A stretch of DNA of 64,000 nt, from contig NC_042998.1 of the NCBI RefSeq assembly GCF_006345805.1, positions 174,034,001 to 174,098,000 of the forward strand, read 5' to 3'. The stretch's first letter is position 1. Each line of letters starts with the position of its first letter. The notes beneath the pieces were generated by a model. It worked only from the letters and a program-made list of their open reading frames with translations, made no database searches and had not been told where the DNA came from. The translations under genes were made by a program, and so were the position numbers. This document shows positions 27,165 through 64,000 of this stretch, piece by piece. The DNA is from Octopus sinensis. Taxonomy: Eukaryota.

Positions 27165-28863
27165 GAAGAGCCTCAAGAAATGCAAGAGGGACATGGTACT
27201 ATATAGATCGGAGGTGACGGCCCTGAAAAATACAGATGGAATACCGGTCAACGAGAAGAGCGAGATGGAAAAAGTTTGTGAAGACTTCTACACCAAGCTC
27301 TTTAAGTCTACCAGAAATGTCCAGCCGTTACCACCACTTCAACAGGAAGAAAACGTGCCACCTATCCTTGTCAGTGAGGTTGAAAGAGCTATCGGCTCGA
27401 TGAAAAACGGAAAGGCTCCAGGGAAAGACGGTATAACATCGGAGGTGCTAAAGTCAGGCAGAGAGCAGCTCTGGAAAATCCTCGCTGAGCGATTTACGCA
27501 CTATCTAGACGAGGGAAGAATTCCCTCGCAGTGGAAAAAGTCAAATACCATCCTGCTGTATAAGAAGGGCGACAGAGAAGATCTAAAGAACTACCGACCC
27601 ATATGCCTGCTGTCTCACGTGTACAAGCTGTTCACGAAGATAATTCTGAACAGGTTGTCACGTCGTCTCGACGAACAACAACCGAGGCAACAAGCAGGCT
27701 TCCGGAAGAACTACAGCACAATTGACCACATATTTACTCTAACGCAACTGCTTGAGCGAGCAAATGAGTACAAGCTGCCTCTTTGCGTTGCGTTTATAGA
27801 TTATGAGAAGGCTTTCGATAGCGTCGAAACCAACGCAGTGCTGAACTCGCTGCAGAGGCAAGGAATCGAAGCGCAATATGTGCAGCTGCTCAGAGAGGCA
27901 AATTCCGGATGCACCACCGACATAGCTCTACTGTCATCACCCATACGAGTGCCGGTCGAGAAGGGAGTGAAGCAAGGAGATACAATCTCCCCAAAACTTT
28001 TCACTGCATGTCTCGAACAGATCATCAGAGGCATCGACTGGCAAGGTGGTGTCAACATTAATGGCGAGCTCCTCACTCACCTCCGCTTCGCTGACGACTT
28101 CGTACTCATCGCTGAAAACATGGATCAGCTTCAGACCATGCTGACGGAGCTCGACATCAAAAGTTCTGCAGTAGGTCTCAAGATGAACCGCATGAAAACA
28201 AAGTACATGCGCTCAGACAATGTACCAACGGGTCGAATGGTGATCGGCAGTGATGAAATAGAGGAGGTGAGGGAATATGTCTACCTAGGACAGGAAGTAA
28301 ATATGTGCCGGGATGTCAAAAAGGAGATCTCACGGAGAGTGAGGGCCGGATGGAAGGCTTTCAATGGCATAAGGGATGTGCTCAAGGGAAGGTTGGACAG
28401 GACCACCCGCGCCAACCTCATTAACAGTGCAGTTCTGCCTGCAATGTTATATGGTAGTGAAACATGGCCTACCACAAAGAGAGAAGAGCAAAGACTGGTA
28501 ACGGCTCAAAGAGCCATGGAAAGGTCAATGCTTGGTATCTCGTTGAGAGAGCACATAAGTAGCAAGATCATCAGAAAGAAGTCCGGCGTGAGACATGTCA
28601 TCACAGAGTATACACGCAGCAAGTATAGATGGGCTAGACACGTCGCCCGGCTCACCGATAATCGGTGGACGCACGCAGTTGTCGAGTGGTACCCGCGTGA
28701 GCGGAAAAGACCACCCGGAAGACTTCCACGACGGTGGAGTTACGATTTCAGGAGGACGATTGGGATCACGTGGATGAGAAAGGCGCGATCCAGAGAGGAG
28801 TGGACATCGTGCTGTGACCAGCGGTGTCAAATGGACGCCTGACGGACTGGTCGGTCAAGGTGA
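27165..28863 (+). mobile_element. RTE LINE copy inserted in a (TA)n tract
   Basis: GC-richer block bounded by (TA)n-type repeats on both sides; very short 3'UTR after the TGA at 28842. Confidence 0.9.
27193..28842 (+). CDS. reverse transcriptase of an RTE-clade LINE (5'-truncated, ORF uninterrupted for 549 aa)
   Basis: KAPGKDG, KKGDREDLKNYRPICLL, QAGFR, FIDYEKAFDSV, GVKQGDTISPKLF, HLRFADD, YVYLGQ, MLYGSETW, C-terminal RWARHVAR...RPPGRLPRRW; no endonuclease domain present. Confidence 0.95.
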   Translation: MVLYRSEVTALKNTDGIPVNEKSEMEKVCEDFYTKLFKSTRNVQPLPPLQQEENVPPILVSEVERAIGSMKNGKAPGKDGITSEVLKSGREQLWKILAERFTHYLDEGRIPSQWKKSNTILLYKKGDREDLKNYRPICLLSHVYKLFTKIILNRLSRRLDEQQPRQQAGFRKNYSTIDHIFTLTQLLERANEYKLPLCVAFIDYEKAFDSVETNAVLNSLQRQGIEAQYVQLLREANSGCTTDIALLSSPIRVPVEKGVKQGDTISPKLFTACLEQIIRGIDWQGGVNINGELLTHLRFADDFVLIAENMDQLQTMLTELDIKSSAVGLKMNRMKTKYMRSDNVPTGRMVIGSDEIEEVREYVYLGQEVNMCRDVKKEISRRVRAGWKAFNGIRDVLKGRLDRTTRANLINSAVLPAMLYGSETWPTTKREEQRLVTAQRAMERSMLGISLREHISSKIIRKKSGVRHVITEYTRSKYRWARHVARLTDNRWTHAVVEWYPRERKRPPGRLPRRWSYDFRRTIGITWMRKARSREEWTSCCDQRCQMDA

Positions 28864-29681: not shown

Positions 29682-30019
29682 TACATACATACATATATAT
29701 GTGTATGTGTATGTGTGTGTTATATTATATTATATTATACGGGGTGCATTCCAGAAGTTTTGAGAGGTTTTTAGGGGAGGCATTCATAACTGTCCGATAT
29801 TGCTTATAAAACAGAAAACGGATTGGATTATACCGAAACTAACACCAAATATTTAATACAAAGTCACTAAAATTAAATCTCTTCTCATTAATAACAATTT
29901 ATACATACGTATATAAACCTTCGAATCCGTTCACAATTTATCAATTAAAGCAAGTGAAATATAATGACCAGAGATATTCACAAGATTAAATGTGGACAAC
30001 AAAGTTTCTCTTCGAGAAT

Positions 30020-31898
30020 ATGGAGTTTAAGGTTGAAGAATTTATTGAATTTCCCAGTGTGGAGCAATTAAGGATTTTTTAAAAATCAGAATTGTTGCTA
30101 TTGGCCAAACATTACTATATGGGTGAAGTTAAGTCAACTATGAAAAAGAGAGAGATTTTCAAAGTGGTTTTGGAACATTTGGTTGATGAAGAAATTTTCG
30201 AAGATTCGGCTTTGTCCTTGTTGAAAACAGAGAAAACAGAAGAGTTTGAGTTGAGGAAATTGGAATTAGAATTTCAAAAAGCAATAAAGGAAATGGAAAT
30301 TCAAAAATAATTAAAATTGAAAGAAATGGAGTTACAGAGTAGAAAGTTGGACACTCCTCGTGATCAGAAAGATTTTGATGTAGCTAAAAATATTAAACTT
30401 GTGCCTCCATTTAGTGAAAAGGATGATAAATTTTTCCTTCATTTTTGAAGAGGTGGCAATAAATTCGAGATGGCCTCTGGAGTATTGCACAATGTTAAAA
30501 CAAAGTGTTTTAAAAGGCAGGGCTCAGGAAGTCTATTCAAATTTATCGAACGAAGCAAGTTTGAGTTATGAGGTGGTGAAACAGGATATTCTAAAAGCTT
30601 ATGAACTGGTCCCTGAAGCATATAGACAAATTTAGACAGTCCAAGAAAAGAAGTGCGGATACTTATGTAGAATTTGCTAGAAAGAAGGAAAATTTGTTTG
30701 ATAGGTGGTGTGTGTCAAAAGAAGTTGGGGAAGATTTTCACTAATTGAGGCACCTTATATTATTAGAGGAGTTCAAACAATGTGTTCAATGTTGATGTTA
30801 AGACTTATTTCGAAGAGCAGAGAGTAGAACAGTTACAAGAGGCAGCTAGTTTAGCAGATGATTACTCTATTACTCACAAGCGTGAGTTCAAGCTGTATCG
30901 TTATTATCATCCGGATAATTTCGAGTTAGGCCAGACAAGTAAGTCAATTTATTCAGCTCGGTCAGGTTCGAATCCTAACAAGTCTAGTGGTTCAGAGTTA
31001 AGAAAGTCAATCAGTCCATTTGTTTCTAATTTTCCTTCAACAATTATTTGTAGATATTGTAGAAAGGCCGGCCATCTGATTTCAGAGTGTAAAAAGCTTA
31101 AGTTAAAAAATCAGTCACAAACCTTACCTTACTCCACGCTTTTGTGAATGTCAAGTCTCAGCCTACTTCCGACATTATTAACACTGAGGAGCAGTTTGTT
31201 TCAAGAGTTCAGTCACCAAAGCCTGCCGTTTTTGTTGAGGAGGGGTAATTGCCTTTTATTTCAAAAGGGTTTGTCTCACTTGAGGGTGATAAATCCACAT
31301 TACGAACCATTACTATTTTGAGGGACACAGGCGCACTCCAGTCTCTATTGTTAGAAGGTACTCCTCCTGTCTCGGAAGTGTTTTCTGCTAACTTTGATGT
31401 ATTATTAGAGGGTATTAGTGGAATTTCAGGTGCACCTCTTCATTTTGTTGATTTGCAGTCAGATTTTGTGTCTGGTTTGGTGAAAGTTGGTGTTAAGAAA
31501 ACTCTCCTAGTTTCAGGTGTAGACTTGCTTATTGGAAATGATTTAACAGGGTCCAAGGTTTTGTCTGATCCTCATGTTAGCATTGGGCCAAGCACTTCTG
31601 AGAGCACTGAATCCCTTCAGGAAATTATTCCTGGTGTTTTTCCCTCATGTGCTGTGACTCGTTCTATGGGTAACTCGAACTCGCAAGAGATTTCCAAAAA
31701 CATCTCGAAAGAGATTCCAGATATTTTCAGATAATAATTTCATATAACGACACCTTGAATGCCCCGGCCACTTTTCAACGCATCATGAATAACATCACTT
31801 CAGGGCTTCAGGGCATCGAAACCTATATTGATGACGTCATGGACCATTCTACTCAGTGGGGTGAACATTTAAAGAGGATGCGTACCCTCTTCGACAAA
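30020..31898 (+). mobile_element. Gypsy/Ty3 LTR-retrotransposon relic (Gmr1-like gag, CCHC knuckle, aspartic protease, RT fragment)
   Basis: LVPPFSEKD, QSVLKGRAQEVY, ILKAYELVPEAYRQ, CRYCRKAGHLISEC, ILRDTGALQS, DLLIGNDL, CAVTRS, NAPATFQRIM...YIDD; multiple stops and frameshifts; no LTRs found. Confidence 0.9.
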
Positions 31899-32268
31899 CG
31901 TACACATAAAATGTTGGCAAAAGCCAACAGTAATGCAGATTCCTTCATAAATTATGAAGAATTTGCAACTTTGATGGCTGGTGAGGATGCTCTACATTCC
32001 CGAGATAAAGTGAAAGTGGTGTTGTGGAAGCAGCCATTGTAAGCATTGTTCCTATCCGGAAACAAAAGGATTTACTTGCGAACAACTCTTGCTGCCCGCC
32101 ACCAGTTTTTATGTTTCTTGTCAACCTGGCTGTGATTGGTGTATTTGTTTATTACGTATTTGAGCTGAAAAAAAATATATTAAAGTTACATGGAGTACAG
32201 GTGTCCCTATTTGCAGTCCTTTGATATATAGTCCTTATGATGGAAAAGAATCATGGCGTTTTATTATT
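31899..32268 (+). pseudogene. intronless fragment of an EF-hand-containing rhomboid-related intramembrane protease (RHBDL-type)
   Basis: Three frames joined by two frameshifts: KANSNADSFINYEEFATLM (EF-hand), SCCPPPVFMFLVNLAVIGVFVYY (TM1), TGVPICSPLIYSPYDGKESWRFI (L1 loop WR motif). Confidence 0.8.
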
Positions 32269-33075
32269 AGCAGAGAAGGACAGTGCTCGTCAACTTTTAT
32301 AGAGCTTACGGTAGTAGAAAACGAGAGTAAAACGTCTCAGAGAATATCTTAATAAAGCACCTTAGAGTCAGGTAATGGTGGTAAATCAAGCAGCAGATTA
32401 AATATTTAAGTTAGAAAACCAATATATACGGCTAGTATTTGCAGTACTAGCACAAAGTCAAACATTGTGGTGTAAGAGAACCATCGATTAACTAGATCGT
32501 AAAATCTCTAATACTGATGATAAACAATTCTAAGTGATAATGTATCATGGAAAAGAAAATACAATCAACGTGCTCCTGAATTTTAAAGAGAATCACATTA
32601 AATACGCAGAACTGAAAGGGACACAGTATGCACGGAATAGAAACACTATAGATATGTACAACTTGTAACCAAGCTTGACTTTCTGAGTCGATTCTCATTA
32701 ACTACACAGATACATGAAGCAGCAAGGTAATAATATATGTATTTATCATCTGCAAGAACATCTGTCTGCTAAGCGTGTAATAAATGTTTTTCTATTAGTG
32801 ATCTCAGGAGATATGTCTGTAAACCATGCCAAATGTCATGATTCTGCATTGCATTTAGCTTAGAAAAGGCATTTATGCGACACTTGTGCAAAAGCTGGGC
32901 TTAAAAACAAGGCGGCATTTTTACGAGCAACGTTTTTACTCATTATCGAAACATCATATATGGGAGAGGGGGATTATATATATATATATATATTATGCAC
33001 AAATGTATATATATATTTACACATATATATATGCATAAATATAAATACACACATGCACACACAGACACATAATTG

Positions 33076-33165: not shown

Positions 33166-35880
33166 AATCATTGTTGGTCTTTACAGGCCTCCCCAAGCAC
33201 CTCTAAAGTGCTTTGAAGAGTGCCTTAGCAAAGTCAAGTCCTTCCTTCGGAAGTACAACTCCGGAAACATACTAGTGATGGGTGATTTTAACCTCCCTCA
33301 TGTGAACTGACCCACAAATACTATGAAGTTAGGCAAATGCTCTACATCAGATAGAGCAGCAGCAGAACTGCTCTTTAATCTAATGAATGAATACTTCCTG
33401 ACTCAGCTAGTGCTTGAACAAACGAGACAGAATAAAACGATCTGGTATTGACCAATCACTCTAGCTTCGTTCACAGTATTTCAGTTGAAAACAACTCTCC
33501 TCACAGACCACGACATGGTACTCTGCAATTTTAATTCCCGACATATAAAAACCAAACCAGCCAATCCCACTCCATGGCACTCATTTGACAACATAAACTT
33601 CCACAAAGCGGACTGGGGAGCAATCAGAAAGGATCTGTCTTTCATCGACTGGTCTTTTACTCTCAATTCCAGCCATATTGAGACAGCATGGCAGCACTTT
33701 GAAAACATTGTCACCTATACATGCTCTAAACACGCTCCCACGAAATCTACAAACACAAACAGAAACTGGCTCCCTAAAAAGAAAAAAAACACTCATCAGG
33801 CGCATCAAAAGACTCAACAAAAAAATCAACCAATTAAAATATTCCCACATACAACAACCACATTCAACAATAATGAAAAGGCTAGAGCTGGAAAAACTCC
33901 ATCTGCAGAACGACATGAAAACCTCCATTGAAAATCAAAGAGCTGTGGAGGAACAGTGGGTAATCAAAAACATCAAACAAAACCCAAAAGTGTTCTATTC
34001 TTATGCAAATAAGCATAGAACTACTGTCTCACCCATTGGACCATTGATTGATGATAACGGCATTCCCCAAAACGATACTAAAGAAATGGCAGAAATACTG
34101 CAGAAACAATACTGCTCTGTCTTTAGTGTTCCCACTGATATTGACGTAAGAGAAGCGAACGAAGTTGACTCTCAACATAAAATCTCAGACATAACCTTCA
34201 CTGCCACTGACATCATAGCAGCAATAAATGAGGTCAAATACTACTCTGCTGTAGGCCCTGATAGATTCCCCGCTAGTCTCCTGAAGGAATGTAAACACCA
34301 ACTTGCAGTCCCTCTGACCAACCTCTGGAGAAATTCGTTAGACGCAGGTTATATACCGAAACAGTTTCTATCCCAGTCAGCCATCCCGGTTTTCAAACAG
34401 GGAAACAGATCCCTCGCACTCAACTATCGCCCAATCACACTCACCTCCCACATCATCAAAGTGTTTGAAAGAGTGTTAAGATCAAGGATAGCTGACTTCC
34501 TGGAGCCCCACAAACTCCTAAATGCGAATCAGCATGGCTTTCGCTGTGGCAGGGACTGTCTAACACAGCTCTTACACCACATTGAAGATGTACTCAAAGC
34601 CTTGGGAACAGGTTCGAAATCTGATGTCATATACCTTGACTTCAGTAAAGCGTTCGACAGGGTAGACCATAATATCCTACTCTCAAAATTGGCAAATGTT
34701 GGAATCCGTGGAAAAGTTCTACACTGGATCAAGTATTTCCTGGCGAATAGAACACAACATGTTGTAGTTGATGGAGTCCACTCAAGCCCAGCAAAAGTCA
34801 CCAGCGGTGTCCCCCAGGGGACTGTCTTGGGTCCGATACTCTTCATAATCTACATAAACGACCTTTCCAGTGTCGTACATTACTGAAAAGTGAAAATATT
34901 TGCTGATGACACTAAGCTCCAGCAAATCGTCAATGAAGAAGCAGACCGAACTCAACTCCAGTCTGATCTATATGCTGTGAGTCAATGGGCAGACAGAAAC
35001 AAAATACAACTGAATGAGGGAAAATTTGAGCTGATGTATGTTGGAAGAAATTCCTCACTAAAACAGCCATACTCTCTTCCTTCAGGGGAACCGCTCACAG
35101 CCTCTAACAATATTAGAGACCTGGGTGTAATTGTTGATGACGATCTCAGTGGAGTGCACACCTCAACAAGAAGGTCGATATAGCTCGTAGGATGAGTTCC
35201 TGGATCTTAAGAACTTTCCGGTCCAGAGAACAAGGTGTCATCATACCACTTTTCTCCTCCTTTGTACGGCCACACCTCTAATACTGCTGCCGACTGTGGT
35301 CTCCCCATACAAGACAAAACATCCCGTGGATTGAATCACCCCAGAGAGCACTCACTAAACGAATTGAAGGCATAGCTGCTCTCGATTATTGGGATCGCCT
35401 TAAAGTCTCGAAACTCTACTCTCTCTAGCGTCGCCGTGAGCGGTACATCATTTGTACGATGTGGAGAATATACCGCCAACTTTGCCCAAACGACCTGAAC
35501 ATTAGCTTCAAGGTTCATCCAAGACTGGGACCACGGGCCATACGTCCCCTGCCCAAATCAAGATCACGGCATACATGTACACTACAACATAATTTCTTTT
35601 CCTCAACAGGCCCTGCCTTATTTAACATTGTCCCGAAAGAGATCAAAGAGGAACAGGATCTCATCAACTTTAAACGGAGTCTGGATAGATTCCTTCAAGG
35701 AATACCAGATAAGCCACCCATAATTGGATACAACTCACTCAACAAAAACTCACTACGTGAATGGACCATAAACAAGACTTGACTTAAACAGGATTCAAAT
35801 AATCCTATCACGTGGTGCTATTAAGTTAGACATGGCCTGGACCAATCATTGGTCGAAAGATATCTAAGTTTATCTAAGTT
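33166..35880 (+). mobile_element. CR1/L2-group LINE ORF2 (APE endonuclease plus RT), 5'-truncated, degenerate
   Basis: GLYRPP, VMGDFNLP, TDHDMV (APE); NYRPITLTS, NQHGFR, YLDFSKAFDRV, SGVPQGTVLGP, IFADDTKL; 3' tandem atctaagttt repeat. Confidence 0.92.
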
Positions 35881-35890
35881 ATATAAATAG

Positions 35891-35938
35891 GTCTTACAGT
35901 TGTTTCCGGGATATTTTATATATCCCTTCATCGGAGAC
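35891..35938 (-). ncRNA. type-I hammerhead-like motif, left arm of the fold-back
   Basis: Minus strand gtct-CCGATGA-a-gggatat/ataaa/atatccc-g-GAAA-CAACTG-TA-agac. Confidence 0.65.
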
Positions 35939-36210
35939 AGTGTGAGAGAATGGTTAAGCAATAGTTATTCTAAAGAAGATATGAAATAGAGAGTGAAGTG
36001 GAGGAATGCAAATAGACGTGAGATATACAGGGATATCGTATCTGTATTTCCATTATTTAGGCAGAATAGTATATATATACCATTCTACCAAAATAACGGA
36101 ACTATAGATACAATATACCTGCATATCTCACGTCTATTTTCATTCCCCCACTTCATGCTTTATTTCATATCTTATCTAGATTAACTATTGCTTAACCATT
36201 CTCTCACACC

Positions 36211-36258
36211 GTCTCCGATGAAGGGATATATAAAATATCCCGGAAACAGCTGTAAAAC
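36211..36258 (+). ncRNA. type-I hammerhead-like motif, right arm of the fold-back
   Basis: gtct-CCGATGA-a-gggatat/ataaa/atatccc-g-GAAA-CAGCTG-TA-aaac; palindromic stem III CAGCTG. Confidence 0.65.
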
Positions 36259-36778
36259 CTTCTCTTTATAAATGTTCTCAAATCTTACACAGCCTTGGAT
36301 TTTTATCTCATTCTGTTATTTTTTTATATATATACACACGCTGATATATAACCTACGTTGGACTCCTCATTCGCATAATCACTGAACCATGAGCTTAACT
36401 ATAGTCTGTCCATAGCACTTACTCAGCATTACCTGACACCTTTGGGTCTTGTTGACACCGTTACCTCTCATAACCTATATATATATATATATACTACTTC
36501 TACTACTACTACTGTGACCTATAGCTTCTGACTCAAAGGGATGTCACTTCTAGTCATTTTTGAACAAGACAAAACTACTTCAACCGCTGAGTGGAATTTT
36601 GATGGCACACCTATTTGGACTCTCAGAACTCATGCCTATTAGTTTTATTCTTCCTCCTCATATCCTATATATGTATATATGTATATATATATATATAATA
36701 TATATATATATATTATATAATATATATATATATATGTATATGTATATATATATGTGTGTATATGTATATATGTATATA

Positions 36779-61620: not shown

Positions 61621-62967
61621 AAACTTAGATAAACTTAGATAGGTTTCGACCAATGATTGGTCCAGGCCATGTCTAACTTAATAGCACCACCTGATAGGAT
61701 GATTTGAATCCTGTTTAAGTCAAGTTTTGTTTATGGTCCATTCAAGTAGTGAGTTTTTGTTGGGTGAGTTGTATCCAATTATGGGTGGCTTATCTGGTAT
61801 TCCTTGAAGGAATCTATCCAGACTCCGTTTAAAGTTGATGGGATCCTGTTCCTCTTTGATCTCTTTCGGGACAATGTTAAATAAGGCAGGGCCTGTTGAG
61901 GAAAAGAAATTATGCTGTAGTGTACATGTATGCCGTGATCTTGAATTGGGCAGGGGACGTATGGCCCTTGCTCCCAGTCTTGGATGAACCTTGAAGCTAA
62001 TGTTCAGGTCGTTTGGGAAAAGTTGGCGGTATATTCTCCACATCGTACAAATGATGTACCGCTCACGGCGACGCTGGAGAGAGTAGAGTTTCAAGGCTTT
62101 AAGGCGATCCCAATAATCGAGAGCAGCCATGCCTTCAATTCGTTTAGTGAGTGCTCTCTGGGGTGATTCAATCCTCGAGATGTTTTGTCTTGTATGGGGA
62201 GACCACAGTGGGCAGCAGTATTCGAGGTGTGGCCGTACAAAGGAGGAGAAAATTGGTATGATGACACCTTGTTCTCTGGACTGGAAAGGTCTTAAGATCC
62301 AGGAACTCATCCTACGAGCTATATCGACCTTCTTGTTGAGGTGTACACTCCAACTGAGATCGTCATCAACAATTACACCCAGGTCGCTGATATTGTTAGA
62401 GGCTGTGAGCGGTTCCCCTGAAGGAAGAGAGTATGGCTGTTTTAGTGAGGAATTTCTTCCAAAATACATCAGATCAAATTTTCCCTCATTCAGTTGTATT
62501 TTGTTTCTGTCTGCCCATTGACTCACAGCATATAGATCAGACTGGAGTTGAGTTCGGTCTGCTTCTTCATTGACGATTTGCTGGAGCTTAGTGTCATCAG
62601 CAAATATTTTCACTTTGCAGTAATGTACGACACTGGAAAGGTCGTTTATGTAGATTATGAAGAGTAGCGGACCCAAGACAGTCCCCTGGGGGACACCGCT
62701 GGTGACTTTTTACTGGGCTTGAGTGGACTCCATCAACTACAACATGTTGTGTTCTATTCGCCAGGAAACACTTGATGCAGTGTAGAACTTTTCCACGGAT
62801 TCCAACATTTGCCAATTTTGAGAGTAGGATATTATGGTCTACCCTGTCGAACACTTTACTGAAGTCAAGGTATATGACATCAGAGTTCGAACCTGTTCCC
62901 AAGGCTTTGAGTACATCTTCAATGTGGTGTAAGAGCTGTGTTAGACAGTCCCTGCCACAGCGAAAGC
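61621..62967 (-). mobile_element. second, more truncated copy of the CR1/L2-group LINE
   Basis: Highly similar to about 34535-35880; ORF 61720-62676 with IFADDTKL, RPHLEYCCPLWSP, YSLQRRRERY; same atctaagttt tail. Confidence 0.93.
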
Positions 62968-64000
62968 GATACATAAAAAGTAAAAGAAATATATCCTTGT
63001 TTCTTTTTTTGTTTTGTTTTTTTTTTACCTCAAGACTACAGATATAAAAAATATCAATATCCATATTGATGCAACACGTATTTTGTCAGTGAACAGGTCA
63101 AATGTTCTTGATTTGTTGCAAGATTTAAAAGAAATATATAGAGATATACACTATATTGTAAATGTCTATAGTGATATCTGAAATCGTACTCTTTATATAA
63201 TAAATTCTTAAATATTTAACTGTCAAACTCTCAAACTTGTACTTCTTTAAATATGGCATAAAACCTCAGAAAACCTATTTTACGCAAGTAAGTTGTCACA
63301 CAAAAGGAGAATTTGTGATAAAAATTCTATTCAAATCATTCTGAATCAGCAGTCCCCTCTAGGAGGACAAAACAATTCTTTATCATTTGTATTTCCAAAT
63401 AGCTCGCTCTAGATATGTGTTTATATAATGACGAGGAATGAATACACTGGTATTTGCCTGCGGTCTAATGTGATATCAACTGATACACTAGTTTTCTCTT
63501 CAGATAATAAGAAGTGAATTCACAAATAATTACAGATAATAAGTATTAGTGAGAATAATTTACAAAAATGGAATTGGAAACAATGTTTAAGTCATATTTC
63601 TCTACTTCATAGTCACACAACTTGCGTAAGATTTGCAAAATATATCAATAATCTATAGCGAAATAAATATTTAGCCTATTTATTTCAATACAATATCCAA
63701 GACATTCAGTTCAAAGCGTCTTTTTATTCATCGGTTGTCAGCAAGTAATGCATTGTTAACTAGTAATACATAAATAGACACCGATATATGAAGCATCAAG
63801 AGACCGGGGAGTCCCTCTGTAATTACCCGTTCTACAAAAGTTTGAAACCAGAATTCCATCATATCATACACTACTAGCTTAAAATTATAAACAAAAACAA
63901 AGAAAAGACATCGAATAAAATAGTTCAATATATACCACCTAAAGTATAGACGGAATGTTCATGACTGAAATACCTTCGATCAAAGAAAGGTTACACATTC

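Follow-up and report, generated by a model that had tools for sequence, protein, structure and literature searches.

How did part of a host protease gene come to lie in the reading frame of a retroelement? The question is raised by a 64,000-nucleotide stretch of Octopus sinensis DNA (the window, on contig C2), in which a Gypsy reverse transcriptase (RT) fragment runs directly into a fragment of an EF-hand rhomboid protease. The original prediction for this DNA was that a host mRNA had been captured by template switching during LTR-element reverse transcription and had since become a pseudogene. A spliced mRNA, its sense orientation, the open frame across the joint and its pseudogenisation were all borne out. 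On indirect grounds, capture of a piece of rhomboid mRNA by the element's RT through template switching is the best explanation, unproven, and is given a probability of roughly 60%.

A spliced rhomboid piece joined to a Gypsy remnant

The rhomboid fragment was compared at the DNA level with the animal's own genome, and 31906-32265 proved to be a 360-nt spliced copy of three exons of a host EF-hand rhomboid gene. All four candidates in the search with 31880-32300 proved to be matches; one is the window itself, and the other three are distinct pieces of contig C1, which belongs to another chromosome. These pieces are 92-93% identical to the copy and encode protein P0001, which settles the rhomboid identity that had been proposed. 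Overall, 23 of the 360 aligned bases differ between copy and parent (6.4%). The parent pieces have AG acceptor and GT donor sites at their boundaries; the two introns between them, of 3,648 and 5,722 nt, are excised precisely in the copy, where the exons meet to the base. The copy begins 88 nt into one exon and ends 23 nt short of the end of the third, mid-exon on both sides, and covers residues 63-183 of the parent's 379 (27-32% of the coding sequence). As two exon-exon joints of an intron-bearing parent located elsewhere are crossed exactly, an origin within one exon or from intron-containing DNA did not occur, and the host piece derives from a spliced mRNA. The prediction had described about 370 contiguous nucleotides without an intron and a joint near 31898; the absence of introns stands, the length is corrected to 360 nt and the joint is moved to 31905/31906.

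No poly(A) was present at the 3' end of the copy. The best repeat between the flanks of the block was 6 nt long and did not lie at the joints, and no target duplication longer than this was found. DNA and protein searches of the own genome found neither a second rhomboid copy nor a second chimera, including the further copies of the RT-rhomboid junction that had been suggested as a check. An intron-poor match on contig C8591 was considered as a further copy and rejected, its identity being only 44%. That contig and four others (C8318, C8692, C8694 and C11633) carry rhomboid and ribosomal-protein genes that have very short introns and are distant from the chromosomal genes; they probably represent a co-sequenced parasite.

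P0001 is labelled 'rhomboid-related protein 2-like [Octopus sinensis]' by its source and is 100% identical to the translation of the C1 exons. The gene has at least 10 coding pieces across about 88 kb, the protein matches Pfam Rhomboid (E 2.4e-30), and relatives of it occur across molluscs. In its EF-hand, L1 WR motif, intact GASGG (Ser 246) and His segment (319), it resembles the EF-hand rhomboid proteases of the Drosophila rhomboid-4 type, as these appear in the available text of PMC12615303. The copy differs from those proteases in extending only from the EF-hand to the WR motif, with two frameshifts and without the catalytic residues.

Table 1. Features of the chimeric locus and its flanks, in window coordinates.
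Feature	Position	Strand	Remarks
Left flank: about 65-nt end of a high-copy repeat (TA-flanked), then unmatched sequence	29736..30015	+	
Gypsy remnant: gag (ATG near 30020, zinc knuckle), protease, linker; stops and frameshifts	30016..31759	+	84-95% identity to family copies on C6, C1, C3 and C10
Deletion joint within the element: integrase and front of RT (about 2 kb) absent; 3-nt overlap; pol frame kept	31757..31759	+	bridged by contig 31 of run X5
RT piece: ~50 codons, including YIDD	31757..31906	+	87-88% DNA identity to C10 and C3 copies over about 150 nt
RT/host joint: in frame, sense	31905..31906	+	bridged by contigs of X1, X3 and X5
Host exon part 1: last 68 nt of a 156-nt exon (EF-hand)	31906..31973	+	63/68 identical; parent C1:97205439-97205372, minus strand; GT donor next in parent
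Host exon part 2: whole exon, 165 nt in parent, 4 nt lost in copy; linker, CCPPP, start of TM1	31974..32134	+	parent C1:97201723-97201559
Host exon part 3: first 132 of 155 nt, 1 nt lost; TM1, L1 loop, WR motif; mid-exon end, no poly(A)	32135..32265	+	parent C1:97195836 downwards
Right flank: not Gypsy; worn piece of an ancient repeat	32266..32520	+	model positions 290-339 at 32354-32403, E 7e-7; 166-208 weakly

The sequence preceding the host piece is the remnant of a Gypsy element (Table 1). Its left edge lies a few bases before the gag start, without 5' LTR, primer site or leader; the zinc knuckle is matched by zf-CCHC (E 0.002), and three indels specific to the window, two of them frame-shifting, interrupt the gag-protease-linker region. 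The RT piece gives an RVT_1 match below the cut-off (E 0.004, model positions 125-179), and its identity as RT is firm by comparison with the C10 and C3 copies, which run on past the matched stretch into RT and RNase H. As predicted, the RT motifs pass in frame into the EF-hand: the stop-to-stop frame 31674-32042 encodes 122 amino acids (EF-hand_1 E 0.02, below the cut-off), and the TM1 and L1-loop motifs come next, in two other frames. The locus is a chimera of a Gypsy remnant and a spliced rhomboid piece, joined in sense and in frame, decayed, and present in material under several organism labels.

Sequencing data bear on whether the chimera could be an assembly artefact or a DNA-level duplication of the rhomboid gene. 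Five of the 24 listed sequencing runs, from three studies and under four organism labels, contain half or more of its sequence words; organism E contains 7% of them. No RNA run was listed as containing them, which says nothing for or against expression. Among contigs from four of the five runs, at least X1, X3 and X5 bridge the RT/host joint and the first exon joint, at least X1, X3 and X4 the right joint, and at least X3 the left joint. These contigs, one set of which (X1) may be the assembly's own source, are built from short reads, so the joint is spanned as had been asked, by short-read contigs rather than by long reads; among the matches listed for the four runs, no single contig covers the whole block. 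An artefact or duplication is largely refuted and very improbable, given the bridged joints, the 6.4% divergence of the copy, its own frameshifts and the exact loss of two introns. Two variants were seen in X4. One lacks 78 nt of the RT piece at 31825-31904, has 23 other bases resembling nearby sequence instead and still runs into the host piece; in addition, 32203-32433 occurs in two forms, one of them with 15 differences.

Decay and age of the two parts

The copy carries two frameshifts, a loss of 4 nt near 32014 and a loss of 1 nt in an A run near 32167, in agreement with the frame changes that had been noted ahead of TM1 and the L1 loop. Copy and parent differ at 10, 8 and 5 sites in codon positions 1, 2 and 3, and only four differences are silent. 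When five changes on the parent branch are excluded, at most 18 of the 360 bases (5.0%, CI 3.0-7.8) are private to the copy, and the silent share of the changes on its branch, 4/18 (22%), is that expected of neutral sequence (21.8%). The copy is thus disabled and evolving neutrally, and the proposed pseudogenisation is upheld. Of what an active rhomboid protease contains (the GxS serine, the TM6 histidine and the six-helix core), the copy stops at residue 183, and the exons with Ser 246 and His 319 were not copied, just as the catalytic GxSG and His segments had been reported absent. Two frameshifts, neutral divergence, the lack of the catalytic serine and histidine, the lack of an element promoter and the single copy found together indicate that the copy is dead, and the chimera would today yield neither a working RT nor a working protease.

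The element has decayed to a similar degree: 57 of 1,530 gag-protease bases (3.7%) and 11 of 149 bases of RT (7.4%) carry private changes. Within the C3 family copy, the LTRs differ from each other at 31 of about 450 columns (about 7%). The ages of the host piece and of the element are compatible, which does not in itself prove a single event.

The residues of the copy place its origin among related species. Residues 75, 79, 95, 141 and 182 are those of O. bimaculoides and differ from O. sinensis and O. vulgaris; the latter two species are matched at residues 130 and 183, where O. bimaculoides and Argonauta differ. Residue 133 matches O. sinensis alone and residue 72 Argonauta alone. This pattern of sharing suggests that the copy likely arose before the sinensis-vulgaris split and after the bimaculoides split, the latter bound being a weak one set by two sites only. 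The available text of PMC9795677 supplies no date for the split in question, and the order is given here in relative terms.

Routes by which the pieces could have met

Capture by the element's RT is favoured because the host piece is an internal fragment truncated at both ends, lies in sense, is reached through two in-frame joints and matches the element in age, and because LTR loss is habitual in the family and ordinary processed pseudogenes look scarce in the genome. The linker/RT and RT/host joints both keep the pol frame, for which the chance expectation is about 1 in 9. In such a capture, the RT in a germ-line particle would have copied a stretch of a co-packaged rhomboid mRNA that began and ended within different exons, and would then have switched back to the RT region of the element RNA. 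About 2 kb of integrase and RT would have gone either in a second jump or through a subsequent deletion. The product would have been integrated between LTRs by the enzymes of an intact relative, and the 5' LTR, the leader and all sequence downstream of the host piece would have been lost in later deletions.

The evidence against capture lies in what surrounds the block. No LTR or 3' element sequence occurs within about 50 kb on either side, the joint has no microhomology and the chimera is single-copy. Searches for LTR, leader, primer site and 3' element sequence gave only simple-repeat matches in the window and nothing in the 20 kb beyond either end, and over the same range no 3' element sequence resumes after the host piece. 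Without the two-sided element structure, two later deletions must be assumed, which counts against capture. The microhomology sought near the joint amounts to 1 nt relative to the C3 copy and 0 relative to the C10 copy, the level expected by chance, although a short match could have been obscured by the decay of about 5% in both partners.

Loss of LTRs is normal in this family, which is low-copy and whose members carry LTRs, primer site and leader. Among ten other internal-bearing copies, examined in stretches of 9-20 kb, both LTRs survive in one, neither in another and a single LTR in each of the others; five of the ten were obtained with a 3'-end query, which biases the count, and one further copy on C24 was left out. 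In the C10 copy, Pfam places Integrase_H2C2 and rve before RVT_1 and RNase H, with integrase upstream of RT as is described for Gmr1 elements in the available text of PMC8220671; the window copy has lost its integrase. The family copies share integrase before RT and RNase H with the Gmr1 clade of Ty3/Gypsy, as far as the available text of PMC8220671 and PMC3424704 describes it, and the family may be called Gmr1-like, a clade assignment made on domain order alone. Another family copy, on C10 at about 102.99 Mb, carries part of integrase in inverted orientation, fused to RNase H and the 3' LTR. On C4 at about 62.11 Mb, two apparently identical family LTRs lie 3.6 kb apart with no internal match between them, probably a tandem duplication of a solo LTR.

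Since both the locus and the family are deletion-prone, the RT/host joint may have arisen through a subsequent deletion. A LINE-made, 5'-truncated processed pseudogene could have formed in or near a Gypsy copy, and later deletions could have brought the two pieces together by removing the 3' end of the pseudogene along with the remaining element sequence. 5' truncation with little shared sequence fits LINE-type copying, and the mid-exon 5' end of the copy, with 0-1 nt shared, has this form. The right flank resembles a deletion break, the Gypsy family is heavily deleted and one run shows the further 78-nt loss beside the joint. The route operates in this genome: a two-gene control, run as a loose search of the large contigs, found one decayed copy of RPS3A and none of RPL21, and the RPS3A copy (C1, about 27.526 Mb) is an old processed pseudogene, 75-80% identical to its parent, spanning two parent exons and having an inverted 5' piece and no clear poly(A). 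An inverted 5' piece in a retrocopy is typical of LINE-type copying (twin priming), and this one is counted against LTR capture. The same control indicates that ordinary processed pseudogenes look scarce here, so this origin requires a rare retrocopy to have become joined to an element of few copies, with strand and reading frame matching and the two of comparable age. The mRNA 3' end, poly(A) and target duplication of a LINE product are also missing, for which a later deletion could account. We regard this origin as unlikely.

Several observations concern LINEs and repeats in the same genome. The window holds an open LINE RT frame of 558 amino acids (27166-28842), two LINE 3' ends that are 97-98% identical, inverted and 26 kb apart (34534-35880 and 61622-62970), and a palindrome with 186-nt arms (35889-36260). 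Two intact RPL21 genes, 88% identical and in inverted orientation, lie 9 kb apart on C1 at about 11.27 Mb, with the coding part uninterrupted.

The flanks were also examined for a common source. The repeat end in the left flank, which we take to be mariner-like, and the repeats in the right flank belong to different families, and the block was judged not to be cargo of one Pack-type DNA transposon. The ancient repeat in the right flank was also modelled from 12 copies; this profile matched nothing in the left flank, and the front part of the repeat is present on neither side. A single old repeat interrupted by the block is unsupported, and the right flank may be a deletion break, of which this is a weak sign. 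The right flank was also considered as a second captured mRNA, and no young source for it was found.

An LTR-less chimeric cDNA, made by template hopping from host mRNA to RT piece to gag-protease and patched into a chromosome break without integrase, would account for the absence of LTR, leader and target duplication at either end. It would also suit the make-up of the block, whose 2.25 kb are all RNA-type sequence in sense orientation, broken by three abrupt joints, with a left end only a few bases ahead of the gag ATG. However, the old repeat of the right flank is not carried on in the left flank, which suits a deletion better than a clean insertion, and LTR loss is common in the family; we consider such a cDNA unlikely as well. 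Judged less probable again is the full sequence of events, with an RT passing over three templates (rhomboid mRNA, RT region and gag-protease), both hops preserving the pol frame, and an incomplete cDNA, lacking LTRs, entering the germ line with no help from integrase. If true, it would provide an integrase-free route for host-exon capture and its first cephalopod case.

Relation to known retrocopies

Capture by the element's RT would follow a published mechanism, LTR-element template switching having been described as a source of retrocopies (Tan et al. 2016, PMC5131818). The species treated there are fly, mosquito, fish, chicken, mouse and human, and the available main text contains neither 'mollus' nor 'octopus'. 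A literature search, mostly outside subscription papers, found no LTR-driven retrocopy from a cephalopod or mollusc. If template-switch capture is correct, LTR-driven gene retrocopying would extend to cephalopods.

In the available text of that study, partial, doubly truncated copies replace internal ORFs, microsimilarity is present at 25 of 29 Drosophila joints (median 6 nt) and in 9 of 22 older mouse cases, and in four cases, from fish and chicken, one flank has lost its element sequence (PMC5131818). Like those copies, the octopus copy is a partial spliced mRNA that is truncated on both sides, is joined to an internal ORF in the same orientation and shows neither poly(A) nor target duplication, and the loss-of-function changes of the older published cases, like the one-sided loss in those four, also have their counterpart here (PMC5131818). 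It differs from the cases in that text in having the element on one side only (5'), no LTRs, 0-1 nt shared at the joint and no secondary copy (PMC5131818). Judged by the hallmarks given in the same text, the copy resembles LINE-made processed pseudogenes in being intron-free with a truncated 5' end, and differs from them in lacking the mRNA 3' end, poly(A) and target duplication (PMC5131818).

Because three defining features were looked for and not found (element on both sides, both LTRs and microsimilarity at the switch point), membership in the LTR-mediated retrocopies is not established. The locus is a retrocopy pseudogene joined to a Gypsy remnant and likely originated in the manner of an LTR-mediated retrocopy. 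As it has no apparent function and its decisive structure has eroded, it would add another example rather than a new mechanism.

The copy also serves as a dated snapshot of a host mRNA, combining five older residues found also in O. bimaculoides with two newer ones that O. sinensis and O. vulgaris have too. This mixture orders the changes in the rhomboid gene and roughly brackets the activity of the Gypsy family. The parent stretch C1:97205439-97195705 shows five amino-acid changes in 118 codons on the sinensis-vulgaris branch, later than the origin of the copy, and silent differences between parent and copy number only the four given above; protein change in this stretch of the parent has possibly been faster.
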